Positions 18,601-49,921 of a stretch of 64,000 nt of DNA are shown piece after piece. Origin of the DNA: Malacoraja senta. Taxonomy: Eukaryota. Each line of letters opens with the position of its first letter. The stretch's first letter is position 1. The stretch is from assembly GCA_038087875.1 (NCBI GenBank), contig CM075993.1, forward strand, positions 9,178,001 through 9,242,000, given 5' to 3'. The translations under genes were made by a program, and so were the position numbers. The notes beneath the pieces are model-generated. The model saw only the letters and a program-made list of their open reading frames with translations, searched no databases and was not told the origin of the DNA.

Positions 18601-19444
18601 GAAAAGCGCCATCCTCCATGACTTCACCCAGGCTGAAGCAAAAGTAGAACTTCAGATATTGGGCTTACTTGGCAAATATCTGACTGGGCCTTGGATGAAA
18701 CGCTTCTACACTTCAAGCCAGAATCAGATCAACCATGTTGATGGCATCAAAGTGGTTAAAGGGGTGATTGCTGCTCTAAAGGAAGCCACAGAAAATCCAG
18801 AGAACATGATATTGGCAAGGGAAGATTTCTTCGGTGAGTAGGTACATCTTGACGCCACATTGAAAAAACTTTGGGAGCTACCAATACATCCACAGTTCAG
18901 TTCAAAGATGAGGAGCTGTCTTCAAGCTGTCATCACTGTGTTGGAGAGGCAATATAGTAAATACTTTGAACTTGATGTAACTGAGAAACTGAAGGAGACT
19001 GCATCAGCAAGATCACACAACATTGATGCGGAGGGAGATAATGGGTATGTTTAGCTCATCGAAACAGAAATCTCCCAATGCCACCATGTGTTATTTGTCA
19101 TGTCAAGTTCAAGTTCAAGTTTCCTTTATTGTCATTCAGACCTTTCGGTCTGAACGAAATTGTGATGCCTGCAGTCATACACAGAACCAATAATAACAAA
19201 CATACAATAAACACAAATTAAACATCCACCACAGTGAGTTCACCAAGCACACCCTCACTGTGATGGAGGCAAAGTCTTAGTCTCCGTCTCTTCCCTCCTT
19301 GTTCTCCCTCTGCGCTGAGGCGATCGATCCAGGCCGAAGATGCCGCCCTCCAGTCCAGCGGACCTCCGTGGTGATGTCGCTGCCGCCGAAAGCCGGAACG
19401 CCGTCTTCGCTCCGAGACGGCCCGCCACAGCATCAGCCCCGGGT

Positions 19445-19902
19445 CCCGCAGTCTCCGCTCCGGACCCCGCTGCACCAGCTCCAGGCCCCGCAGTCTCCGC
19501 TCCAGGCCGCTGCACCAGCTCCAGGCCCCGCAATCTCCGCTCCGGACCCCGCTGCACCAGCACCAGGTCCCGCAGTCTCCGCTCCGGACCCCGCTGCACC
19601 AGCTCCAGGCCCTGCAGTCTCCGCTCCGGCCCCGCTGTATCAGTTCCAGGTCCCGCAGTCTCCGCTCCGGACCCCACTGTACCAGCTCCAGGCCCTGCAG
19701 TCTCCACTCCGGACCCCACTGCATCAGCTCCAGGTCCCGCAGTCTCCGCTCCGGACCCCGCTGCACCAGCTCCAGGTCCCGCAGTTTCCGCTCCGGACCC
19801 CGCTGCACCAGCTCCAGGTCCCGCAGTCTCCGCTCCGGACCCCGCTGTACCAGCTCCAGGCCCCGCAGTCTCCACTCCGGACCCCGCTGCATCAGCTCCA
19901 GG
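19445..19902. repeat. 42-bp GC-rich minisatellite, about 11 copies
   Basis: Unit CCGCAGTCTCCGCTCCGGACCCCGCTGCACCAGCTCCAGGTC, giving 14-aa periodicity in all overlapping ORFs. Confidence 0.95.
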
Positions 19903-20175
19903 CTGCCGCCGAAAGCCAGAACGCCGCACCAGCAAGTCGGGCCACCGCTGCCTCCGCCCCGAAGACGGCCAGCCTCCCGTTGGTAAGTCCTGGCTGGCTC
20001 TGCCTCCGTAGCCTCGGGGTCGGTCGCAGGATGGAGGCGGCCACCCCCGCCATTAGGCCTCACCGCAGACGGAGGCAAGGAAGGGGGATACGACACGAAA
20101 GAGTCGCATTCCCCCGAAGGAGGAGACAGAGGACATGTTTCTCCCCCCCTAACACAACCCAACAAACTAAAACTT

Positions 20176-24984: not shown

Positions 24985-25085
24985 GGCTGCGGGAGAGACT
25001 CGGTCAGTCAGTCAGGGGGAAGACAGCCAGCACAAACTGCCCGCCAAAACCAGGCTCACCAATCAGCGCCCGAGACTGCTCTAAA
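24985..25085 (-). promoter_or_regulatory. DUT nuclear-isoform proximal promoter overlapping the exon 1b splice acceptor
   Basis: CCAAT at about 25059-25063; E2F-like TTTTGGCGGG at about 25040-25049 on the minus strand; branch-point-like CTGAC repeats, pyrimidine tract and AG. Confidence 0.6.
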
Positions 25086-25087
25086 GC

Positions 25088-25536
25088 CCTTCCCTCACCT
25101 TCCTCTCCCTTAATCCTCTCCCCTCACCCTCCTCCTCCCCTCTCCCTCCTCCCCTCTCCCTCCTCCTCCTCCCCTCACCCTCCTCCTCCCCTCACCATCC
25201 CCTCTCCCTCCTCCCCTCTCCCTCCTCCTCCCCTCTCCCTCCTCCTCCCCTCACCCTCCTCCTCCCCTCACCCTCCTCCTCCCCTCACCCTCCTCCTCCC
25301 CTCACCCTCCCCTCTCCCTCCTCCCCTCTCCCTCCTCCTCCCCTCTCCCTCCTCCTCCCCTCTCCCTCCTCCTCCCCTCACCCTCCCCTCTCCCTCCTCC
25401 TCCCCTCACCCTCCTCCTCCCCTCACCCTCCTCCTCCCCTCACCCTCCTCCTCCCCTCTCCTCCTCCCCCCTCACCCTCCCCTCTCCCTCCTCCTCCCCT
25501 CACCCTCCTCCTCTCTCCCTCCTCCTCCCCTCCCCT
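25088..25536. repeat. Polypyrimidine/polypurine minisatellite, unit about CCCTC(A/T)CCCTCCTCCTC
   Basis: About 450 bp almost entirely C/T on the plus strand, with 14/17-bp periodicity. Confidence 0.95.
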
Positions 25537-25839
25537 TATCATGGTCTTCAGGATGGCCATGTGTACTGGGACCTCTGCAGCTCCTGGAGGCTGTGATATG
25601 ACAGGTCACCACTGAGGTGCTGTCTGAGAGGAGCAAAGATGGGGTATTTGACAGCTTTAACCTCTTTGGCTTTAACAGATCTCCTTGCGGCAGTGATTCT
25701 GGCGAGGCTGTTGTTTTGGGGTCAAGTTGATGGAGGTAATAGTGCAGACTAGGAGTGGTCTGTTTAGGTGCATGTTACAGCACAGATCATGCAGACATTT
25801 TTGTGCTCCTTCAGAATTACTCTAGGTGGTGTAGAGTAG

Positions 25840-33130: not shown

Positions 33131-33266
33131 TTAGGAGTAAAAGGTCAGCACATTCTTTTGATTTCCTCTAATCATAATGACAGGAGGCAGATTTCTAGAA
33201 AGAATCTCCAACCAAGCCAAATACAGGTAGCTTGATACAGCTTCTTTTCTTGCAATTGGCAAACTC
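33131..33266 (-). CDS. SLC12A1: SLC12A1 last coding exon ([44 protein letters not shown])
   Basis: C-terminal NVLTFYS-stop. The [16 protein letters not shown] sequence and adjacency to DUT favour NKCC2 over NKCC1 or NCC. Confidence 0.95.
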
Positions 33267-33563
33267 CTAGAGTGTGAAAGAAAACCAAAAGTTAACATCT
33301 TAAGAAAAATAAATCTGAATATTTATTAGCATTAGGATTTATAAGCACATTCACATACGTTGATTGAACTAAAAAAAATCTTAAGATTGAGCCTATATTT
33401 TCACTATTTTGTTCTCAAATCTACACTTCAGGTAAATGTGTAATGACAGCCACTTTCTCCACTAAAAATACAGATAAATGTATTCTTGGATCTGTTATGT
33501 TACATTATCTATAGAGTCAGTCCCACTGCTTTATTGTGAATAGTATTCATGGAGTTTACGTAC

Positions 33564-33631
33564 ACAACAATGATATTGGCAGCTCGCGAGTTCTCCTGTA
33601 GAAGTTCGTTGAGTCTGACTTGCCGGTATGT
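33564..33631 (-). CDS. SLC12A1: SLC12A1 penultimate exon (TYRQVRLNELLQENSRAANIIV)
   Basis: 68-nt exon; RQVRLNELL motif. Confidence 0.97.
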
Positions 33632-33773
33632 CTAATTTAAACAAAGTCACAGAGTACATTACTATTTATGAGAACAAAATAATTCATGAATGAATGACAT
33701 ACATTCATGTAATAAATTACATTACATACATGTAATAAATATGAACACAATAGTTTACAGCATGTTTGTCTAC

Positions 33774-33909
33774 CTTGTCTTTAAATCTCTCTAACTCAGC
33801 ATCAGTAATTTTCCATGGATACTCCTTCTGCAATAACTCAGCGGTTACAGGATCCTTGGAGCTTTCATGCAGTTGATATGGTTCAATCAAATCTTCAAAT
33901 GCTTTCCAG
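33774..33909 (-). CDS. SLC12A1: SLC12A1 exon ([45 protein letters not shown])
   Basis: 136-nt exon; IEPY..HE and PWKITDAEL are typical of NKCC2. Confidence 0.97.
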
Positions 33910-36316
33910 CTGAAATTAGTTACAATGACCAAATCAAAGCACAATTAGTAGATCTTTAATAATAATTATTTAGAAACTAATGTATTATACACTTGATGTC
34001 GTACCAAAGTCTCACAATTTACTAAGTGCATCATTTTGCACTTTCACTGCAGATGTTCTGGATCTCCTATCTTCTTGATCCTGCTCTTTACACCAGTACT
34101 CCTGTGGTCTCCCTCCACAAGATGTGTTGTGCCTTTGATCAAGAGTGGGAGCGGCCAGATTTCTTAAAAGCCCCATGTGTGACTGGTAACACCAGTATAG
34201 TCGAGGTCCAGAGATTGTGGATTAAGAACACTACGGCTTAGTACAACTTCATCCTGCATCAAGTTGTGTCACTAAATGTAGCAATCAATGATGTTGCATT
34301 TCATTTAATCTCACTGAATGAACTGCTCCTCACTAAGCCAATGTTGGAGCTTAAATTATCTTAAATAATGCTGTGGATTTGTCGGTCAGCCTGAGTAGTG
34401 GCCAGATTACTCCTGTGTGGTCCTCATTACCCGTTCATTGGGTCATATTTCCGAAGGGATCAACAGCTTCAAATTAATGCCAAGCAGTTCATTTGTGCAC
34501 TTCTGCAACTTCGTACCGTCATTGTTGATTCAAGGAAACTGGTGTACAATGCTGAAGGGTATCAGTAAATCCAGACTGTGTTTGCAGGAGTAAATATTTG
34601 CTGAAAGAACATCACCCTACTTCTCCCTCCACTGAAGCTGCCTGACTTGCTGAATAGTTCCAACATTTATGTATTATTCCATCAATGAATGAGATCAACT
34701 TGCCTGAGAAGCTCCTGTGGCCATGTTAGTTATTTTAATTTTCTAAGTAACACTTCACAATAATTGTCAGTCATGACTGCTCTGAAACACCTTAGTTTGG
34801 GGGAGCAGCAAGCTTGATTTTCTGGGTCTACTGCCTCATATCGGGGACATCTGTGGGATTGGGTCCAATGAACCATCAAAAATAAATATTAATAGGAGAT
34901 TAGCTATGATGATCAGCCTAATAGGTAAACCATTAGGACAAGTGGAGAAGGCATTAATTGATCAAATATCTGAAATTTAGCCTGCATTTGTGAAGTGCAA
35001 ATATTATTCAATAAACTTAGTTTCATGAAGAGCAGTGTGGTTGGAATAGTGAAGATGGATTTTCAAAACGTTTAACAAAATGGACCAAATGGCACCCTTA
35101 AATCTCTGGTGTGCAGATACAAAAATGTCCAAGGAACACGATAAAGGAGCAATAAACATTGCCTCATAATCAAGACAATTAGGCGATTGACATCACTCAA
35201 GTTGCTGCTGAAATCACTGCTCCTTTTTGATGTGCCAACCATTTGGATGTCAGAGGAAATATTGTAATTCTAGATTTGCTAATCACATGAAATTCAGAAA
35301 TACCCATGAAAATTCATCCTCCAGGTGTATGTCCAATACATTAGTTGAAAGTTCTTATTGGATCTGGTTTTGCCACCTTTTCAGACAAAACATTCCAGAT
35401 GTTAATAATACTTAGAACATTTTTTCTCATGTCCATCCTTCTTGTTTGTTTGATTTGTCTATTATCTATAGATACTGATCCTAGGAAACAATTGTTCTCT
35501 ATTATAATTTTTCAGACACAATATTGAGTATTTTATGGACTAGATATTGCTGACTCTTGGGAGTAGCATGATTAGACCTGCTGGTGTTCAGCCATTGAAA
35601 CTTGAGCAAGTCCTAGACCACCATGTACTTAGGAAAGTGGAAGTGGAATGTTTAAGCAATAGTTTTAGAATATTTCTGAATATATAATATTCAGAAGCAA
35701 TCAGCCCTGGATTGTTTGTTGACAGAGGTCTCAGATTTTTTTCTCAGTTGTTTCACGAGCTGATGCCCCGTGTTGAGCAGAGCCTTGATATTTAGGATGA
35801 AGATGGCATTGGGCAGAAAGCTGATAAATCTGTTCACTGTTATCATGTAGATTATTGGGAAGTCATTGGCTTACTGCTGGCAGGAAGTTCTAGTCCATTG
35901 AATTAGGACCAAAATGTTGGCTAAAGAGGTAGAATTTTAAAAGTGCCACAAGGGTGTAAGAAAACAAAGAGATTTACAGGCACAGTCCTAATGCAGTGAT
36001 TAAATTTGGGAATAATAAAAATATCAGAATACATGCATAAACACATGAGGGTTGCCAAAGTGATTGTAGAGTTAGAGTGGTTAGCCATCATGGAAGTTTG
36101 AAAATGTAAGTGCTGTTTAACTGGGAATTCCGGGAGGAGAGGGGTGGGGCGAGTCCTGAATGGACATGAAGCAGCCAGCGCAACTTAAAATAGCAGGAGT
36201 GCAGTTTATGAAGGTAGAAGGAGGGATGTCCAGCCAGTAGTGTGCAGGAATGATTTAATCTGTCAACAAGGTAAAGATCTACTTTAATTAGAGGACCCCG
36301 GAGCAACCATTCATAC

Positions 36317-36403
36317 CTCTCCTTGCTTGGTTTCACGTTAATATCTCCAATGACCTTGATGTCAGCACACTGAATCCTAAATTTTCCCAGAAGTGCAGCC
36401 ATT
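36317..36403 (-). CDS. SLC12A1: SLC12A1 exon (MAALLGKFRIQCADIKVIGDINVKPSKE)
   Basis: 87-nt exon; MAxLLxKFRI motif; AG/GT sites. Confidence 0.97.
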
Positions 36404-39400
36404 CTGTAAAAAAGTCAGAGGAATGAAATGTGAAAAGAGCATTTAAAAGGAAAATTACACCAGGCTCTGTAAATCTGAATTAGAAACAAAGCATTGCAAA
36501 AACCTAGCAAAGTAAAGTGCAGTGGTAAGGAGCATAGGTGGATGCTGCACAACCTGATGTGAATGCTACTGATCTTAAACAATGTAATATTTATCTTGCT
36601 GTTCAATTCAATCATTCAAATGCTGGGGTTGGTCCTTTTTTTGATCACTACTACCATCCTGTTAAGAGATTTTTATTGAATCTACACTTTCTATAATTTG
36701 GGCTCAGAACAGCAGTTATTTGCCATTATATTCTTTTTTTTTAAATGCTATAGCCTTGGAATTGCAGTGCATGGTTAAGTGCATCATAAGGATGTTGACT
36801 GGTGTGCAAATGAGCTTTTAGTTTTAAATCTGCACACAAAAACTGTAGAGACTCGACTTGTGAAGACAAGGAAAATATGGTTTCAGAGACGACGGCTGGA
36901 TGAGAGACTTGGTGTGGTACAGGGGAGGATTTTGTAGTGCTTAGAGCCTCAGGGTTTTGTAAAATTGTACTTGGCTCCAGAAACAAACAATGCTATGCAA
37001 GATCAAATCTGTAGGCATATCATTTTGCATTCATTAGCATTTCATAGCACAAAAATATTCTTGTGGTACTTTGTATCTTGTGAAACCCAAACAATTCTTC
37101 CACATCATATGAAGTATAATTAATACTTTTGCTTAGCCAGGTTCTAATCTTCCACATTGCAACCAATTCTGCCATCTTACTAAAATCTCCTTTTGGCACA
37201 CTTTGGTCCTCAGTATGTGTATATTCAGCCTAGAAACTTTAAGATATCTCGAAGAACACATTAATTCAGCGGTGGGTGCAAACTCTCAAATGTTTTGTTT
37301 GAAGGCCACCATGTCAAAGTTCTATGTTAATGTTCACTGATTTTGTGCTTAGATTAGGCTTTGCACATTTTCTGCTTTGAACGGTATTGCAGATTGCAGA
37401 AAATAAGTCAATAAATCTCAAATCTAGGCCAGGGAGAACCCTTCTGTCATCATTTAATTTTGGTTACCCTAGACCGATTCCCAGTGGTCAGCTCTGCATT
37501 TTAAACAGTTTCCCTTTCAATATTGACTAAACTGACCTCACAAAAACTCAAGAGGTCTGCTGTTGCATACCACCAATGGGCCACGAGTGCCATGGACTAG
37601 TATCAAGTATGTCACTGTGCATGTTAAGATATTTATTTGCATTTACAGTTCTGATGCATGAAGGTCCATGAATATAAGGTGAGGAGTGTGTGGACGTCAA
37701 TGTTAATTCATTTTCCCCCTATTTTAATGATTTTTACGTTATTGATATTGTAATACAGATGTTGTAATAATAGGTGATACATTTTCTAAGTCTATATATA
37801 TTTAAGCATTATTTTCAAACACAGTGTATTCAAATTATGTACACAGGAATGAAACATATTAGAATTATTACTATTACTATTACATATTACTATTAGAATT
37901 ACCAGTGTCCACTGTATTTAAGAAACTTTTCTCGACTTTTATTTCTCTTCTTCTAACCAATTTTATAATCTTACTTGGTGTCTTCTTCATTCTGTACTGA
38001 GCATCAACACAGCCATGAAATATAATTACTCCAGTCTTCTGATATTTCCTTCCAAATCCTTCCTCCATGTAACCATACTTGAAAATTCCCCATGGCCAAA
38101 CCTTTATTTATTTAAATTGTCCAAACAGTGAATCAAGTGTCTGAAAGCAGTGTGGTTATTGGAGTTCATAAAAACTAATATTTTTGCATAGCCATTGGTT
38201 GGGGTCTGGAAGTCCAATAGGGGTAGAAGCGGTGGCATATTCATTTTTTGCATTCAAAAGGGAGCTGATTAATATCTAGAAAGAACAAAATTGCAGATAG
38301 AAGGCAGGAGAGGAGGAATAGCTGGATTGCTCTTGTATAGAGATAGCAGACTCAAAGGACTGAATGTCCCAATGTTACAATCATTGAGATTCTGAACTGC
38401 TGGCATGACAGAAAACCATTACTTAAAAATAGCTGAGGAGTACAGCAAAGGTCACAAACTACTTACACACCACTGTGAAAAGGTTATTGAAACCATTCAC
38501 TGCACATTTTAAATAAAATTATTAGTGGGGAGATTTCAAAGAAATTGTGTAATGGTATCAACTTGCAGAGATACGAATGTTATCCATAGACATTAATGTG
38601 AAATTTGCAATTTTTTAACTTGTATATGGCTGCTTATTAATGGAAAATTAAACAATGAAACTTTTACTAGACTTGCTTGTGCTGAAAATAGTTTGGTTAT
38701 TTAATGATTTAATATGCCTTGACCCCTCATCCACATAAAAACCAATGCGCTATCCACACATTTTTTTTTCTCCAGCTCTATTTCATACAGGCAAATTCTA
38801 AGCATGCAACAGCACTTCAATCCATTTCAATCAGTAGCAAACTGCCTCTTCCACCCCATTCCCCCACATCCCACTCTCAATAAGCAACATCCCAGTTCTT
38901 AAACATATCAGTTTCAAATATTGACCATTGATGTCCACAACTATTTCTAACTTCCAGGCAACTTGAGTGCCAACCATTTCCTAATCTTTCATTTATCCTG
39001 ATCCCAAGGACCAAAGGGAGCGAAAAGGAGTTTCTGGTAAGATGGCAAAATCGATTGTAAAGTGGAAGATGGGATTTGGCTGAAAAAATAAGTATGAGTT
39101 ATACTATATATGACATGGAAGAAGTGTTTGGGTTTCAATCACGATGCAGCTTCCCTCTCTCTGACTTTTTACAAATTCATCTAGTGTTTCTTAATTAAGA
39201 GTTTCCACTCCTAATTACCTTTCATCACAAAAGTTCAATGTTTTAACCCCTCTTTACCACTCTGCCATTTCGGAGAAGACATTTTACAGTGTAGTAAGCA
39301 GCATTCCAGCAATAAAACTGCTTTTCAGAAACACAAGGAACTGTAGATGCTGAAATCTTGAATAAAACAAAGTGCTGGAGCAACTCAGTGGATCAGGCAC

Positions 39401-39454
39401 CATCTTTGCAGGACATGGATAAGCAATATTTCAGTTGGGACCCTGAAGACTCTT

Positions 39455-39716
39455 CGTAGAGGTCCACGCGTTGTGTACACACTGTTTCTTTATTAATTGA
39501 TACAGCCCCGGCACTCGCACGCATTCAGTTAATATTTAACTAAAAACCTTGCCGTCGCTCGTGAGCAGCAGTTAAGCTCCAACTACTTAGTTCTCTAATA
39601 TCACAACGGCCCGCCCCCTGATTGGTCGGCCCAGATCACGCCAATTCACGAGAGAGTTCGAGCTCGACAATCGAAGGTTCGAGTGACAAGTGGCTCTGCC
39701 ACAAGATGGCGCCACA
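39455..39716 (-). mobile_element. Solo LTR (Gypsy-like)
   Basis: Minus strand begins TGTGG and ends CTACG (CA expected); 4-bp TSD TCTT at 39451-39454 and 39717-39720; internal CCAAT, GC box and AATAAA on the minus strand. Confidence 0.65.
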
Positions 39717-39734
39717 TCTTATCTGTTTAGACCA

Positions 39735-40993
39735 TAAAAATTAGGAGTAAAATGCGCCCATTCGACAGATTCAGTCTGCGCCACCATTCGATCATGGCTG
39801 ATCTATTTTCCCCCTCGCAACCCTATTCTCCTGCCTTCCCCCCCATAACCATTGACACCTTACTAATCAAGAACCTATCAATCTCTATTTTACAAATATT
39901 CAATAACAACCCCCACAGCCACCTGTGGCAATGAATTCCACAGATTCACCACCCTCAGCCTAAAGAAATTCCTCATCTCCATTCAAAAGGTACGTCCTTT
40001 TATTCTGAGGCTGTGCCCTCTGGTCCTAGACTTTCCCACTACTGGAAATCCTCTCCAAATCCATTCCATCTAGGCCTTCATTATTGGTAAGTTTCAATGA
40101 GGTCCCCTTCATCCTTCTAAACGCCAGTGAGTACGGGCTTAGAGCCATCAAACACAACTCATACATTACCCAATCATACCTAGGATAATTCTCATAAATC
40201 TCCTCTAAAACCCTCTCCAATGCCAGCACATCCTTCCTCATTTATGGGACCCAAAACTGCTCACTAAATTCCAAATGTGGCCAGACCAGCACCTTGGATT
40301 TACCTTTGTTACTACTGACTAATTAACCTTTGGGGAATCCTGCACCAGCACTCCCATGTCCCTTTGCTCAATCAATTTCTCAATCCACCCCACATTTAGA
40401 AAATAGTATGCCCCTTATTCCTCTACCAAATTGCATGACCGTACTTTGCCCCTTCTCCCAACCTGTCCAAGTCCTTTTGCAGTCTCCCTCCTTCCTCATC
40501 ACTACCTGCCCCTCCTCCTATCTTCTTATCATCTGCAAACATGGTCATAAAGCCATCAATTTAATCATGCAGATAATTAATATATAACGTGTAAAGTAGC
40601 GGACCCAACACTGATCGCCATGGAACACCACTAATCAGCGGCAGCCAACTAGAAAAGGCCCCGTATATTTGCACTCTTTGCATTCTGCGAGTCAGCCAGT
40701 CTTCTACCCATGCTAGTATCTTGCCTCTAATATATTAGACTCCTATCGTGTTTAGCAGCATCACAGGTGGCACCTTATCAAAGGCCTTCTGAAAATCCAA
40801 GTAAACAACATCCACTGACTCTCATTTGTCTATCCTGCTTGATACTTCCTCAAAGAATCCCAACAGATTTGTCAGGCAAGATCTTCCCTTACCAAAACCA
40901 TGCTGACTGGTCTATTTTGAGTACCCCAAAATCTCATCCTTAATAATGGACTCTAAAATCTTACCAACCACTGAAGTCAAACTAACCGGCCTA
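39735..40993 (-). mobile_element. Degenerate CR1 fragment
   Basis: Minus-strand RPVSLTSVVGKILESIIKD and a CR1 3' UTR. Confidence 0.88.
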
Positions 40994-41670
40994 ACCAGGG
41001 TGGGTGTGGGGGAGGAGGGGTTGTGGGGGAGGGGGGTTGTGAGGGCGGGGCGGAGGGGCGTGGGGGGAGCGAGCTCGGAGAAAAGATGGGGAAGAGCCAT
41101 GGGGGAGAGGGAGGCATCACGGGGGAGGAGGAGCCAGCGAGGGGGACCAGAGGGGTAGTGGCTGGAATTGGCGGTGCGATAGGGGCTCACAGCAGGCGCT
41201 GGTCGCTGGTCGTTCTCCTCTGCCGGGATCTGAGTCTCCGCTTTCCGTTTGGCGACATCTCAGACTCTGGGCTGGGGCGGGTCTCCAACGCTGGGCTGCT
41301 GCTTGGGACGGGGCAGCTGCTTGGGGCGGGGCTGGGCTACTTCGGGTCCCTCGAAAGTCCGGTTGGAAACTTCCGCCGGCCACCCTCAGCTCCAGTAAAG
41401 ACGCGATGGTGCAGGAAGGGACGGACCGTCACGGGGAGTGACAGGGGAAGAGGCTAATCCGCGCGGCGCTGACTGGCAGAAGCGATCGATCTGCGCACAC
41501 GCGGTTGTTAAGATTTTTAAACCTCGCTAACTTTAACGACATTCAACCAATGGAAATGAAACTCGGTGCACTGGCAGCACAGGAGACAAGTGAGTGAACT
41601 GCCGAAAAATCGTTGCGCTATCGCGAAGCGTTTTTGCCCAAATACAAAGACCGCCAAACCGGAAGATAAG
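40994..41670. repeat. Unclassified GC/CpG-rich interspersed repeat fragment abutting the CR1 copy
   Basis: Abrupt compositional switch at the CR1 breakpoint; no credible ORF; termini not resolved. Confidence 0.4.
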
Positions 41671-44050
41671 AGGGGGGGGGGGGGGGAAGGTGTGGGTGTG
41701 TGTATATATAATTAAACTCCCATCGTTTTTTTTTTACCCTTTTCCCTTAACTTTACCCACATGGTTTCTACTGTATATCTTCTGATCTAATGTCGTTTCT
41801 TGCCAAGAACAGGACCGTACACAACCTCTGCTCTTTCTTATACTTATTCCTCCTTATCTGCTTTAAATAGAGCTGAACATTGATTGAACTGCTGATAATG
41901 CCCAGCACCCCCCATCATCCATTTCCCTCGTTTAGGACTACCTCTGTGCTGGCAGGATAGCTGATAAAGTTATGGATATGACATTATTTCCTACAATTCC
42001 ATTGGGTTGTTTTTTTTGTTTTTTTAAACAGGGACAATTTATGGACTGTCCACCAAGGCTCTGCCACTAACAGAGTGCTTAACCCACAGCCTACTTCAAA
42101 CTCACAAAATGGATCTGTTAGATCCATTGTTAGAATAAAGCACTCTTTTAACCCTGTTAATGTCAAAACCTTTGTCTACTCGTCCATCATTTCTGAACTT
42201 TAAATTCTTCAATAGTGCTCCCATATTCTCCAACTTCCCAATTATTCCTCAAATAAAAATCTTCCTCTTTCATCCTGTTCTAGTCAGTCAAATACAAATT
42301 CCTATGACGCTTTGTCCCATCTTACATTCAAAAATTCCCAGCCTTAAATTCCCTCTTGTCCTGACTCCACCCGCTCACACATTCTTCCCTCATGCATCAT
42401 TCCCTTAGCTAGTAGAAGGGGCATTTAATGCAGCAGCCTTCCCTTGAGAACTCCTTCCCAAAACATTTGTATCACTCTGCCCCCTTCACTTCATTCAGAA
42501 GGCTTTCTCAAAAATTGATGTACATTAAAACTCTATAATCTGTAAATCACAATGGTTCCACATCTAGTTCTCTAGATGTGCTCCCTTACATCTCATTGGG
42601 TCCTAGCTCCCACACTTCCTTCAACACACTGGAGCCTCCGTTCTTCCATTCACTTAAAACTCACCATACTCACTGGAAAATGTGTTATAGTATTGTGTAG
42701 CATCATGAAAAAGTAAAATGTGCATTGGTGCATTAAGAAACAAAATCCAATTGTGCTCCCCTCCCTCTCACTTCTATATACTGGCCATCTTCCTTCTCCA
42801 CTGTCCTGTTGCTGGTTCTTGACCTGAAAAATGCTGACCAACCCTTTGCCTCCACAGATGCTGCCTAACTCACTGATTTCTTCCAGCAGTTTATCTTTTG
42901 CTTGAGTCTGGAAAGATCTTAAGTGTACTAGATTAACTGTTCAATTATTTAAAAGTCATTCAAATTTATTCTAATCTGTTGAAGGTCCTTTGGGGAATTG
43001 AAATTTGTCTGATGAGTGATGAAACAGGGGCTCTCAGCTACGTATCATGTATTTGCACAGTCTCTTCAACCTCCAAATTAAAAAGCATCAGTTTTTAAAT
43101 AAAACTCTGGTATCCAGGTGGTAAACTGTTGCAATTTTATTTTACTGTTGGATATAATTTGAATTTAAAATAAATATGTTTCTTTACACCTCAATGTTTG
43201 TTGATAAATGCCATGTACCTTGACAACTTAGCGTTAGATATTAATTATATTTGAAGGTCAGTACATATAAGCCTAACCTATTCATGAAGGTTGCAGCTAA
43301 TTTGGCACTTGACCTTTTACAGTCAACACAGAAATAACAGGGCTCTTTCACATACAACATAGAAGGCCTGTACTTCATCCAAACAAAGTAAGGTTTAACA
43401 GTAATGTTCCAAACACTCCTTGGCTTGCTGCATTTTCCAGCTAACCAACATTAAGCAAATGCATGAGAGAAAGTTACTATAAAAGGCACAGAAGAGGTAC
43501 ATATGCAACTCTTGCTTCCACTTCCAGGAAAGCAGTTTAAAAAAATGCTTTCTGCTTGAAACATCCATATCCAATTGTCATTTCATGACTGTTGCCTAGA
43601 CTATATTTAAATATTGCCAAAAAGCAGCATTGTGGAGTAATGAGCTCTGTTATCAGTTTCAAGCATGTGGACAAAAAACAAATGGTGGAAGCTGCCATTC
43701 ACTCAGAATATCTGTAAAGTTGAAAGCTCATGTAACTATGGTATTTTCTCAATACTTGTGACTTAAAATTAATAACTTTACCAGCACAGAAAAGCACATT
43801 CCTGGGACTGAAAAATAATCTACTTCTTACTGATCAAAATCTCAATTTCATGCAACTCACAGGAAACTCTTTTCAATCATGTCAAAAAGCAACCATTGAT
43901 GTAAAAGGAGTGAACACAACCAGCCCGTGAATATCCATGAGATCGCAATCCCCACCCATTTTAAGTCATTCCAACTGAACCAATACTGTGTTTGCTGCCA
44001 GATTAAAATGATCCTAATGCAAGACACCTGGTGCAAAAGATGAGAAATTA

Positions 44051-47000
44051 AACCCCTGTCTCACGGTGCGAGCTGACCCACGAGGTACCCCGAGCTTAAA
44101 ACAAATTTAACTCGTGGTAATCACTTACGATTAACATTGTGGGAACGTCGGAACTCGTGGACGCAACTTAGCGACTCGTGGCGCTAACGGCAGGTACCCG
44201 TGAAACTTGTTAACTCTTGAAAAAGTTCAAACATGTTTAAAGTTTTCCACGAGTAAAATTTACTCTTGAGGTTAAAAATGGAAACATTTAAACTCGTTGT
44301 AAGAACTTGGTGGCCCTTGAGTTAAACTTAGTGACTCTTGAGTCTACCGTGTTGGATTAACGTTTCGAGTGCGATCTTTCATCAGAGCCGCGTTTAATTA
44401 ATAAATCCAGCCACGGTATTTTGACATCAGTTAGAATTTCTTCTGGAATATGATCTATTTCGCTTTAATTCATAAAATGAGTGAGGAAGAGTCACTGGAG
44501 TTTGAAGAAGCGGTGAGAAACCACAGCCAGTCCGCCACGGAGAACATGCCAGATTATAAACCAGACCAAGCCACCACTCCAGAACCCAGGACTCAGCCAC
44601 CAACGGCAGCGGTGGCACCCAGGAGAAGAACCAGTGGCGGCGGGAGGTCCCGACGTTGAAGCAGCCCAGAAAAGTTGATCCCAAGCATTGGGCTGAGTAT
44701 CTGGAAAGAGCCAGGAAGAACGCCGCAGCCAAGCCAACAACAACAACGCGAGGAATCACAGATAAACCTCAGGGGGGTTCCCAGGCATCTGTGGAGGGAA
44801 GGGAAGCGTCGGGAGATGACCAGGATAGCCCAGTGGACGAGGAATTCATCGCGGTGACCACCAGGCGGCCACGAGAGGTTCCAATCACATTGGTATCTCC
44901 TCGCATAAGGCCAAAGGATCCCCATGCGAATGGAGCGCCAGTGGTGGCACAGTCTCCAATGCTGGTACAGACCACACCACCTAACGAAAGGGAGACAACG
45001 TTTCCAATGAGCCAGGTGTCCACATACCCCAGTCTGCATCCTGTGCCTACAGATTCCATTGATAAAAGGAGACCGGGAGGTGTCAAAGCCCCAACTGTAA
45101 CTCCCCAACAACCCAATGCTGAAGGGCAAATGACGTTCTCCGATGATATTTTGGATCTTCATGTTACCCATGCACCTACCCCAGCCACAATGCGGATGGC
45201 CACACCAGAGGCAGATATAATCCCACCAGGAGAACATACAACACAAGTGGAGGTCTCTAAAGGCGGGAGCGTGACCATCAGTGGCGGCCACCATCACCCT
45301 ATGACCACCAAAGACCATGGTCATCAAGTCCCGCTTGAGCCCAGGCAGAAAGCCACAGACTCTCCACCCCCCTTGCTATCCACCACTGTCAGCCAGCGGA
45401 GCCACACTGTCACCGACGCCTCAGTTTCCAAACCAAGGCTTTGGGGACGAAGACGGAAACAGCCATACAGGCGTCGATACGGCCGGCCAGGTGTTAACAA
45501 ACACTGGTATAGCATTGTGAGACCGGTTCGGCGGAGACACGGCGGGTCGGCACTGACAGTCACATCGCAACTCCGCTATCACCGAAGTCCCACTGCGACT
45601 CCCGTTCCCACTGTCCCTTCCCACACAGACTGAGATAGCACTGATGGAGAACGCCGGAGTTCCCCCTCAGCCACAGATCCAGTTTGGCAGAGGTCCCTTG
45701 GAGGAAGACGATCGGGCAATCAGTCCCGATAGCAACGCACAAGCCCCCACTTGGAAAACCACGACACAACCGCTGGCGACCAGTCCAGGCACCAGCCCGA
45801 ACCCTACCTTACTAGCTATCAAGAGACCTACAGAAAGTCCACCCCAAATTATCTACTCAACATATACTCCAACCACTATCCAGCCTACCAGCCAGCCCCA
45901 CAAGACTGTTCGTGGAAAGATCCCTTGGGATAGGCTTTTCGGGTTCAATAGTCAAAGGGATGTACTCCGGAGGCTTCGGAAACCCATGAAGGGTACCGGG
46001 CCTAAAATTGTTACTCAAAGGACGTTCGTTCTGACCAAGCCGACTCTCCAAGATGTGGTGACCTCGGTGCCAATGGTAGAACTCACGGTATTCCCTCTCA
46101 ACACCCCACGTACCCAAGACACCACCACCGGACAAACCACGCGGGTTACCATTACCTCTGCCGGCAAGATTACAAGGACCATCCTCCCATCTACCGTTGA
46201 AACGGCGGCGGTCACTACAGAGACCACCCCTATCACAGTCACCACTACCCGGGCAACCTTCACCACCAGACAACGGCCGTTCTTCCGGCGCAGGAGACCG
46301 GGAAAGCCCTTCGGTAGAACCAAGAGCCGAGCGTTCTTTTCGAGGCCCACCTCCGGACGGAATCGCTCGGTGGCGTCGGCGGCTGAGAACAGGAAGACAA
46401 TACTAGACACGACGAAAACTAGATTGGCCGTGACTCCGACTGTCCCAGTAACCACAAAAGCGCCTCTTCCTGTTGCAGTAGAGACCAGCACTTGGAACAT
46501 TGGTGCGCACTGGAGACGTTACCCTTACTCCAGCTTAAATTTATTACGTCGTTATTAACGGCCAGTATTTGAAAGGTTATCCTTTAAATGAAATAGTTAT
46601 TGCCATTCCTAAAGGCTTTTGCGAAAACTTAAACCGTGGTTTATTATTAAGATACTTGCGAATGTTGTTTCATTAACAAATGCTCCTGCAGTGTAGATGA
46701 CATGTGCATGTACCTTTAACATAGTGACCTCACCACTACTAACCACTCCCCACATCACTAGTATAATTACAACCTTCCCACCCAGTGCTCTCGCTCTCTG
46801 GTTCCGGTGACAGACCACGAACAGCTAGGGCAGTAAAGTATGTGTATCATGAATAAACAGTAGTAAAGACACAGTGTGTTATGACACCTCTTTACATGTA
46901 GTTACTGAGTTCAATTTAAAAACACAACAGTGCCTTCAGTGGATTTATTTCTAAAAAAAAACCTTTATTCATAAAAAGATGTACAGGATATGCAATACAC

Positions 47001-48039
47001 CAATGCCATGTGTAATTTCAAAAATAATCTTTCTCCTGAATAAAAATATGTATAAAACAAAAACCGTGCGAAATCTTTTCATAGATTCTCAGTGGTTAAT
47101 GCCTTCGGTATTTTTCTAAAATAAACTTTACTCAGAATAAGAAATGTGCACAAAACAAAAACAGTGCAATGCATTATCAGTGTCTATACATTCAATAGTG
47201 TCATACTTAGGACTGTTTCCATCTATATTTAAACTAAACTCTCTTGTCGCTATGTGCCCCTTGGGGTGATATCCCTACCCTTGTCTGACGGGTGTCCCCA
47301 TTTCAATATCCTGCAGCGGAAGGGCCATAGACTGTGGTCCAAATGAACTGCACGTAAATGCAATGCAGATACAAATATTCTGTGTCTGTGTCTGCCATTT
47401 CCGTCTTTAAGGCTTCCATGTCACAATTGCCAGTTCAATGAGTAATTCGGCTTAATTCAGATTTTATATGCGGATGCGAATAGTTTAATTATAAAGTTTA
47501 AATTCTATTAAATATGTTACAGGGGAAAAACGTCCAGCAATGAAAAGACATCCCTGTATTTAAATAGCGCCCATCACAAACTCAGGAGGTTCCAACGTCT
47601 ATTACAGTAAAGGAAGTACAGTGAACGTACTTGGATAAACATAATGTTGAGCATGAATATTGTTTCGTTTAAAAACGGTGGTAACAAGGTTTGTAAATAT
47701 GCAAAGGCAGACAAAAAATGCTGGAGAAACTCAGCGGGGGAGGCAGCACCTACGGCGAGAAGAGATATGCGACGTTTCGGGTCGAAACCCTTCTTCAGTA
47801 ACACTGTTGCTTATTAAAACAGACCTTCATTCACGTTTGGCTCAAGAGTAACTCGGGAGAGGAATTTGGTAACTCGGGAGACAAACTTGGAACATCGCAG
47901 AAATGACAAGTTAACGGCAAACCTAGTCATACCCGTGGGAACTCGGTTAAACTCTTGATCATACACTTGGAATCTCGTACACAACCACGAGTCTTTCACT
48001 CGTACCTCGTGGGTCAACTCACACCGTGAAACAGGGCTA
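44051..48039. mobile_element. Non-autonomous PIF/Harbinger-like TIR element carrying a captured host-gene fragment (Pack-type)
   Basis: 38-bp TIRs at 44051-44088 and 48002-48039 with 5 mismatches; TTA on both flanks (44048-44050, 48040-48042); subterminal ACTCGTG/CACGAG repeats; no transposase ORF seen. Confidence 0.85.
44477..46558 (+). pseudogene. IGSF10: Captured IGSF10-like central mucin-like region, about 690 codons with two frameshifts
   Basis: RKVDPKHWAEYLERARKN, EASGD..DEEFIAVTT, KHWYSIVRP and RGKIPW occur in the same order as motifs recalled from IGSF10 (RRIDPQHWAALLEKAKKN, SSG...EEF, RHRYSIFR, KIPW). No LRR, Ig or signal-peptide sequence. Confidence 0.75.
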
Positions 48040-48700
48040 TTATACCAAGCATTTATAAATCAATGAGTTATAAATCAGTTAAATTACAATATTTAATTAT
48101 AAACACTGTATTTAGAAAGGATAACAATTATTAGGGTAAACAATCATTCTTCAGCAATCAAATAATGTTTTGCTTGTGTGCACCCACCACTAGGAAATGT
48201 GGTTGTGTACAAGGCTTGGTCAGGCCTTACCTTCACATAGAATGCAGAGCAGTTTGTGAGATCAGGGAGGTTGACATGTTTAAGTACAGGGGCCACTAGA
48301 GTCAATGGTTAAAGAATGAAATTGGATATTAGTTCACAGTTGGGATGTACTGGGATGGGTGGGTTGCAAGTTAGGAGCTTGGGTGGGGAAGATTACTATT
48401 GACAAAGTTGAGGTGTTGGAAGAAAGTCTAAAGGAATGCTGGATAAATAAATAACTTAAGGGGCCAAGTTTTTACGGTGCTGCCGTGTCACCGATCCCTT
48501 TTGTTGCACAGGTGTCAGCTTCAAAGGAGCAATGAAAGCATGTATTTGGCATCCTCACTTAGAATGTCAGATGCAAAGCATCCAGAATCACAATCACAAA
48601 CTTCATGATACAAAGCTGATTTTCAGTGGAAGTGTCTCACTGTGATGGTAAATATTCAAATAATTTAAACACTGAGTTCATAATTTCAAACTAAACTTAC

Positions 48701-48812
48701 GCCCGTTTCTCCTCATTAATGCTATCCAACTTCCCGCCAATAAAGATACGCAATTTGCAACCAGACCACTTTTTCCGTGTCGTTAACAGATACGGAATGA
48801 GAATCGTCAAAC
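48701..48812 (-). CDS. SLC12A1: SLC12A1 exon ([37 protein letters not shown])
   Basis: 112-nt exon; conserved LIPYLL...CKLRI motif; AG/GT sites. Confidence 0.97.
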
Positions 48813-49798
48813 CTATTAAAGCAAAGATATTGGGATTAAAAATTAAGTGAGATTGGCTATATATTCATTTAACATTCAAAGATTTTTTTATACAATAGAT
48901 CAGTTATTCTAGGTAACAGATGAGAGCTAACTTTCACACCATCAATACATCAGATATGCTTTTAACATTTTCAATCAAAATATTTTTTACTCTATTATTG
49001 TTCCCCAAACATAGATTTTTCAGCTGGGAAAAAAGATACTGTACAGGTTTCATAAATGTTTTCAATATCAGCATACTTAGCCATGTTACGACATTCCTTC
49101 AAACCCCACCCCAGAAAAGGGTGCACAATCTACGTTAGCACTTCAGCGCATGACTGGGTTTGTGTTATACAGCTTTCAGATGTATTAAACCATTACCCCG
49201 TCTGCCCTTTTTAAGATGGATGTAAATGATCCAACCGCACGATCCGAATAGTACGTTGAATTCTTCCAGGAAGAATATTTCTCCCTTATTCAACATGATC
49301 ATTTTACCCCTGGATGTAGGAGTTTGCTATGTGTAAATTGGATGCCATGTTTTAAAATATAAAAGTGACTATGGTGTCACGGACACAGGCCAATCAGCCC
49401 AACTCAACAACGCCATCCAGTGGACACCCTCCATATTAATCCCAATCCCAGCAGTTGGTCCATTGCCTCATCTGCCAAGATCATCTAGATCATTAAATGC
49501 TGTTTGGAATTATTTCAATGACCATAAAATGCTTTCATGATCTTAATGTCATGAAAGATATCTTAATGCAAGCCTGTCCTACTTTCATAACCAAAGATCT
49601 TTTTAATTCAAATGAACACAGCCACAAAATCTTATAATTTTGATCCATGCATTAAAATTAGATGTGCTGGAAGGAACTGCAGATGCTGGTTTAAATCATA
49701 CACAAAATGCTGGAGTAACTCAGCGGGACATGCAGAGAAGGAATGTGGCCCTTCTTCAGACTGCATTAAAATTAGATGTTTTGGACAATATTTCATAC

Positions 49799-49921
49799 CT
49801 CCATCATCAAACAGCCACCAAACATCTATTGTGCCTTTCCCTTGATTCATTTGGAATTGAGCACTAGCTTCCAATTGGCGTTGATTGAAATTAGCAGCAT
49901 AGCCAGTAGCGATTTTAAAGC
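49799..49921 (-). CDS. SLC12A1: SLC12A1 exon (...[28 protein letters not shown])
   Basis: Hallmark [11 protein letters not shown] motif of NKCC/NCC; 123 nt; AG/GT sites. Confidence 0.97.

Follow-up and report, generated by a model that had tools for sequence, protein, structure and literature searches.

Pack-TIRs are transposons with terminal inverted repeats (TIRs) that hold host DNA in their interior. A survey of animal genomes reports 370 of them, four of which are multicopy, with a median cargo of 224 bp and 13.4% exonic (Tan et al., 2021, PMC8277862). In the tables of this survey, PIF-Harbinger Pack-TIRs are listed for a frog, and the elephant shark, the only cartilaginous row found there, has 0 Pack-TIRs. 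The same source describes Ssk-FB4, which took up a nearly whole gene together with its upstream region and which is transcribed, and is reported to be translated and selected (PMC8277862). A 3-nt target duplication of TTA or TAA has been described as a feature of PIF/Harbinger transposons (PMC3014272, PMC8903248). The element analysed here is a Pack-TIR by definition, and its copies lack the selection that would mark a new gene of the Ssk-FB4 type. It is a real, young and multicopy Pack-PIF/Harbinger element with an unusually long in-frame coding cargo, and its gene-like organisation is largely a by-product.

The window, as the whole analysed stretch of 64,000 nucleotides from Malacoraja senta is called here, contains a non-autonomous PIF/Harbinger-like DNA transposon whose IGSF10 cargo replaces the interior of a cargo-free parent. 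The element (44051-48039) is positioned within an intron of SLC12A, and the cargo is antisense to the host transcript. Its features are as follows.

44048 to 44050, no strand: left target-site duplication TTA, read from the sequence, with its right partner TTA at 48040-48042.
44051 to 44478, plus strand: 5' arm of the non-autonomous element, holding the TIR AACCCCTGTCTCACGG..., the AT-rich motif TTAATTAATAAA, an in-frame ATG at 44450 and the A and T of the ATG at 44477.
44479 to 46525, plus strand: captured IGSF10 exon piece, identified by the host locus match, matches to named IGSF10 proteins and the junctions.
44651 to 44659, plus strand: 25-nt deletion (frameshift 1) and premature TGA at 44657-44659, with the same deletion in copy L002 at another insertion site.
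45555 to 45556, plus strand: 2-nt deletion in an AC repeat (frameshift 2, which restores the phase), also found in L003 and absent from the sister copy L002.
46526 to 46558, plus strand: ten element-derived codons and the TAA stop, found in cargo-free parents.
46692 to 46896, plus strand: solo-LTR-like insert of 205 nt (TG...CA), containing AATAAA at 46852-46857 and showing a near-perfect duplication of 5 nt (TGCAG/TGTAG).
46897 to 48039, plus strand: 3' arm with an ancestral SINE-like piece at about 47704-47798 and the right TIR, from the sequence and parent comparison.
48040 to 48042, no strand: right target-site duplication TTA, from the sequence and the family tally.
33134 to 49889, minus strand: host context, with SLC12-family exons at 33134-33265, 48700-48813 and 49791-49889 that bracket the element.

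Two smaller repeats lie inside these borders. The piece at about 47704-47798, which we take to be SINE-like, recurs across the window; it had been read as a later insertion near 47700, but it is ancestral, being also present in the cargo-free parent, and is not specific to this copy. The stretch 46692-46896 is presumably an LTR, a label that follows its anatomy and LTR features with no library match behind it. This 205-nt insert is a young high-copy repeat (98–100% identity among matches), its empty site is seen in the parent, and duplications of 4–5 nt flank four of the six other copies of the repeat. It is private to the window copy and absent in 21/21 other cargo-bearing copies, so the AATAAA at 46852 that lies in it is no part of the gene-like cargo to which the preliminary description had assigned it. 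An ancestral AATAAA is found 265–376 nt past the stop in 20/21 other copies. Elsewhere in the window, two GC-rich tandem arrays occupy 19383-19926 and 25025-25554, with units of about 21/42 nt and 17 nt.

A search of the species' own genome (1.94 Gb), which gave 43 matches from 40 scored of 1,154 candidates, revealed a single host donor on the minus strand (G000:C8:22187251-22189327) that matches the window only at 44479-46525. The donor locus lies inside an open frame of 1,413 codons, and IGSF10 with its Ig domains continues on both sides. The protein of the one intact copy matches eight named IGSF10 proteins of rays and sharks, the best being that of Amblyraja radiata (P0001, 89%), and the C8 locus is therefore identified as the donor. 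The captured piece is 2,077 nt long in the host and 2,047 nt in the window copy, with 97.6% identity over aligned bases. It corresponds to the stalk between Ig2 and Ig3, starting at residue 690 of the 2,570-aa Amblyraja protein, and comes from the middle of one exon, without a splice site, promoter or domain. The donor locus and the named matches thus confirm the earlier assignment of the cargo to the IGSF10 stalk within a TIR transposon. The absence of a signal peptide from the stalk-only frame was also borne out; the cargo is low-complexity and holds no Pfam, Ig or LRR domain.

The joints show microhomology of 1 nt (G) on the left and 2 nt (CT) on the right, and such lengths of 1–2 nt are within the range published for Pack-TIRs (PMC8277862). 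A question raised earlier, namely which terminal codons derive from IGSF10 and which from the transposon, can be answered: codon 1 consists of A and T from the element and the shared G, IGSF10 supplies codons 2–683, and the element, after the shared CT, supplies the ten final codons with the stop. As for a retrocopy, no A-run is present at the 3' joint, and intron loss cannot show since the captured piece lies wholly within one exon. Horizontal transfer of the cargo was ruled out by the donor in the same genome at about 97.5% identity, and a viral origin by the non-coding arms and the host-exon cargo. No family TIR was found within the 80 kb searched near the IGSF10 donor. Template switching fits better than the fusion of neighbouring insertions, because the interior of the parent was replaced and the donor has no family TIR within that distance. 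About 14 kb upstream of the large IGSF10 exon there is a decayed Harbinger-type transposase copy (C8:22204621-22205118), without the ends of the element family.

The relatives of the element in the genome fall into cargo-bearing and cargo-free forms. With a 121-nt probe across the junction, the 40 scored of 47 candidates sorted into 12 chimeric loci, 1 host locus and 27 parent-type matches, and the 12 chimeric loci have an identical 5' joint and distinct flanks. The cargo-free parents have the same two arms, with the 5' arm running on into ATGTCAAAA..., after which the frame is short (at most 32 codons in 18/20 parent loci), and their 3' arm already contains the later stop of the cargo frame. 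No transposase frame was found in 20 parent loci, and no host donor for the parent's own interior among 40 scored of 100 candidates. Ten more loci (L014-L023; eight distinct sites by flanks) carry cargo only from 45614 on, without the junction ATG and the 5' half. In these half-cargo loci the 5' part is that of a sibling high-copy family (L200-L219), which meets the cargo over about 25 nt of similar sequence. Five of the ten keep a frame of 303–305 codons from an internal Met to the element stop.

Eleven copies are 96.7–97.6% identical to the host exon. A tree of ten copies and the host is star-like, with one well-supported pair, the window copy and L002 (support 96/94). The window copy and L002 (both on C17) are 0.84 Mb apart, and L007 and L009 (both on C1) are 0.14 Mb apart, all with different flanks; the closeness of these two related pairs, each on one contig, suggests local hopping. 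About 50 kb of the SLC12A region recurs at G000:C5:44595890-44647204 (L113, L179-L185) with 98–99.7% identity to the window from 46897 onward and to C17 beyond. This recurrence starts inside the 3' arm of an element whose 5' part is cargo-free and whose flank is different, and the C5 element shows the private changes of the window copy onward from between about 47160 and 47520. Either the region was duplicated by recombination between two members of the family, or a haplotype was mis-joined there at the repeat.

Assembled reads of other organisms were also considered. In organisms B, C, D and E (one run each), arms and host exon lie on separate contigs that break at the joints, with no bridge among the contigs listed; this hints at a lineage-specific capture, as far as contigs, which show presence and not absence, can do so. 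In run X20 (organism D; that it is RNA is a guess), the contigs continue into host IGSF10 at both joints, and this run therefore speaks to the host gene of another organism and not to the element. No RNA run was listed as covering the stretch, which speaks neither for nor against transcription, and run X24, from the same study as the runs that cover it best, gave 0 records, which does not prove absence.

The placement with PIF/Harbinger is based on the TTA/TAA duplications and on the ends. The window copy has TTA on both sides, and both ends were called by script in 18/22 copies; 12 of these 18 have TAA or TTA on both sides and 12 have identical triplets, some ends being mis-called or eroded. 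The right TIR of the family agrees at 14/16 positions with the TIR of L172, a 4.7-kb element of the same genome with a DDE_Tnp_4 frame and a TTA duplication. L172 is one of 20 extended transposase loci, and the other 19 have no such end. An autonomous partner was not found among the 150 scored of 534 transposase candidates, and comparison of the arms with 30 + 20 transposase loci gave nothing clear, with one weak match of 47 nt. Many Harbinger-type transposase frames of the genome are intact and have identical scores (a group of 478 codons), and the superfamily has therefore been active very recently.

The signals that had given the locus the look of a self-contained gene are in place. TTAATTAATAAA occupies 44394-44405, the ATG at 44477 has an A at -3, the TAA ends at 46558, the span is 2082 nt or 694 codons, and AATAAA is at 46852. 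A second in-frame ATG lies nine codons upstream of 44477, at 44450. The two frameshifts are of opposite phase, as proposed, but the second is not at 45600: 25 nt are missing after about 44651 and 2 nt after about 45555, and since this makes 27 nt in all, the phase returns. Relative to the donor, the window copy has an additional in-frame 3-nt deletion after 45856. As it stands, the window frame that opens at 44477 runs for 60 codons to a stop at 44657 and is followed by a stretch of 357 codons in another frame and then by 333 codons in the first frame.

The AT-rich motif, the ATG and the stop all pre-exist in the cargo-free parent; TTAATTAATAAA is found in 20/20 parent loci and does not match TATAWAW, for which the 5' arm holds no match. 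Both Arg-rich clusters proposed as NLS-like are present, but they are conserved in the host IGSF10 of sharks and rays, so the element is not where they arose. What makes the locus look like a gene is a cut inside an open exon beside an ATG and a stop that already stood in the AT-rich parent. In 4,000 simulated random captures of the same length from the IGSF10 exon, an ORF of at least 600 codons arose in 96% and one of at least 690 in 49.5%, AATAAA fell less than 300 nt from the stop in 33%, and the start was supplied by the element in 23%. This shows that the long frame is the default outcome of capture from this exon, and not more than chance. An ATG touching the junction occurred in 1.7% of the simulated captures, a post hoc figure and, though chosen after the fact, the only result that favours the gene reading of the preliminary description.

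The copies preserve the founder well enough for its frame to be read. Their consensus is one open frame of 693 codons with 0 stops, as had been predicted, and this openness follows from its 98.6% identity to the host exon. Consensus and host differ at 29 bases (20 non-synonymous, 9 synonymous), which affect 28 codons; polarised with Amblyraja as the outgroup, the 20 amino-acid differences divide into 15 on the host side, 4 on the element side and 1 that could be placed on neither. With only 4/20 on the element side, the founder had little time to break before it spread. On the host side, about 15 amino-acid changes in 693 codons have accumulated in the stalk since capture, and omega between host and consensus is 0.97; constraint on this stalk portion of the gene appears very weak.

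After the spread, the copies decay neutrally and without sign of selection. A dN/dS near 1 had been named beforehand as the pattern of a passive fragment, and omega is 1.1 over 12 copies (private changes 1.08, shared changes 1.19). Distinct changes amount to 209 non-synonymous, 8 stop and 81 synonymous, where 202.3, 9.0 and 86.6 are expected after correction for CpG, transition and transversion classes, with L012 and L013 cut at their large deletions. Frameshifting indels make up 26/32 in the cargo and 19/25 in the arms (P 0.75), counted, like divergence, in 10/12 copies, L012 and L013 being left out for the same deletions. The TIRs had been described as diverged beside a preserved cargo; arms and cargo differ by 1.1% and 1.0% in the window copy, and by 1.27% and 1.43% over the ten copies. 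Eleven of the 12 copies are broken. The remaining one, L008 on contig C2801, has kept a 698-codon frame that is free of frameshifts, though it has two in-frame deletions; its 22 non-synonymous and 8 synonymous changes stand in the neutral ratio, and at least one intact copy in 12 is expected by chance with P of about 0.44. The 25-nt frameshift occurs both in the window copy and in L002, which sit at different insertion sites, and L003, L004, L007 and L009 have a 4-nt insertion at one site (captured position about 811) with slightly different letters. The latter may be one event with later changes, or two, and gene conversion or recurrence is also conceivable. Broken versions thus kept spreading.

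The explanation that accounts best for these results, and that can be held with considerable confidence, is that 2,077 nt of the IGSF10 exon took the place of the transposon's interior, likely by template switching, and that the cargo is likely a passive passenger. The sequence comparisons show the donor exon, the parent without cargo, both junctions, the 12 + 10 cargo loci, the TWA duplications and the neutral decay. From these we infer that a break or stalled fork inside a parent element would have been repaired from the IGSF10 locus, with template switching in repair or replication, in what was probably one capture event with 1–2 nt of microhomology, itself a weak basis for a mechanism. The chimera would have kept both ends and gone through a burst of transposition soon after, presumably driven in trans by Harbinger transposase. 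The 3'-half recombinant likely goes back to a later template switch with the sibling family, over the roughly 25 nt that the two have in common. No function of the cargo would be needed for any of these steps.

The open consensus, the intact L008 and the junction ATG, the last a post hoc observation, speak against a passenger. They could be explained if the founder, and perhaps L008 as well, were expressed from a start and promoter in the arm as an intracellular Arg-rich stalk protein of about 700 aa that served its own function; a DNA transposon would then have given rise to a vertebrate gene in a single step. The ancestral AATAAA behind the stop of most copies would suit such a gene, and the fly Ssk-FB4 family provides a published precedent (PMC8277862). 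However, the changes in L008 and the odds of finding one intact copy are those of neutral decay, the arm has neither a TATAWAW match nor a captured host promoter, the product would have no Pfam domain, and broken or half-length forms have spread no less than whole ones. A stand-alone protein of 383–1,222 aa was found nowhere among 7,989 candidates scored, which is weak evidence. When the product of a DNA transposon acts in trans, selection does not see the individual copies, and their neutral decay is expected; an omega near 1 is thus compatible with a brief role of the founder. On balance, such a gene is improbable. The founder could have encoded the stalk-only protein of about 690 aa that the preliminary description envisaged, as the open consensus and one 698-codon copy indicate, but its re-purposing as a transposon-borne ORF is not supported, given the omega of 1.1, the 11/12 broken copies, an intact copy at chance level and the multiplication of frameshifted copies.

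An action of the cargo as RNA is a similarly doubtful proposal. The intronic window copy would be transcribed in antisense within the SLC12A pre-mRNA, and small RNAs directed against the family could act on the roughly 97% identical IGSF10 mRNA. Its orientation and intron position and the close identity of the 11 copies to the host exon would permit this, and transcription of Pack-TIRs from host promoters has been reported (PMC8277862), but the cargo shows no conservation above what neutral evolution gives. The 15 amino-acid changes of the host stalk since capture are no sign of an interaction, since this stalk (37–54% identical to those of other rays and sharks) evolves fast anyway. An assembly error as the source of both frameshifts, or even of the chimera, is very unlikely: contigs of two runs that hold most of the stretch do show the non-deleted form where they cover the sites, but such contigs drop rare variants and cannot confirm one copy, whereas the 25-nt deletion occurs in a second locus together with other shared changes, the 2-nt deletion recurs in the assembly sequence of L003, 12 loci have the same 5' junction, and a contig of run X1, which may be the source of the assembly, bridges the 3' junction by 56 letters.

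With capture of a passive cargo as the preferred reading, the locus is a clean vertebrate case of a multicopy Pack-TIR in which donor exon, empty parent, chimera and later recombinant are found in one genome. No paper on an IGSF10 cargo in a transposon was found, and the family may already be catalogued in the subscription journals or repeat libraries that lay outside the search. It illustrates that one switch at the DNA level can give by chance a complete ATG-to-stop frame of about 700 codons, the raw material for new genes. Since the copies preserve the exon as it was at capture, they allow recent change in the host stalk to be polarised. They are also an annotation trap: with some 20 IGSF10 pieces that are nearly identical, reads could be mapped wrongly or genes miscalled in this species. 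Expression of the intact copy, together with selection on it, would make it a vertebrate counterpart of fly Ssk-FB4, but the present evidence stands against this.

Codons 2–683 of the window frame stem from host IGSF10 (Amblyraja radiata protein, 89% identity), and so do the two Arg-rich clusters and the motifs VDPxHW and RGKIPW that lie in them. Unlike the full host IGSF10, however, the element took the low-complexity stalk only, and the signal peptide, LRR and Ig domains were left out. Like the plant Pack-PIF elements, it has PIF/Harbinger ends, TTA/TAA duplications, non-Pack and Pack groups in one family and nearby family insertions; unlike those described (PMC8903248), it lives in an animal host and its cargo replaces the interior. 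Like the multicopy animal Pack-TIRs, for example Pack-hAT-N8_XT with the CAPSL 5' UTR, it combines host DNA inside a TIR element, apparent short microhomology where the two meet (the survey gives a median of 2 bp), a distant donor and repeated transposition with distinct flanks (PMC8277862). Unlike the Pack-TIRs reported there, the skate element has a cargo of 2,077 nt of pure coding DNA, wholly coding and about nine times the published median length, at about 20 sites, with the cargo-free parent still present and a recombinant subfamily (PMC8277862). The likeness to Ssk-FB4 of Drosophila melanogaster is that coding DNA was taken up by a non-autonomous TIR element and multiplied (PMC8277862). 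Unlike Ssk-FB4, the skate cargo is a mid-exon piece that has no host promoter, signal peptide or domain and that evolves neutrally.
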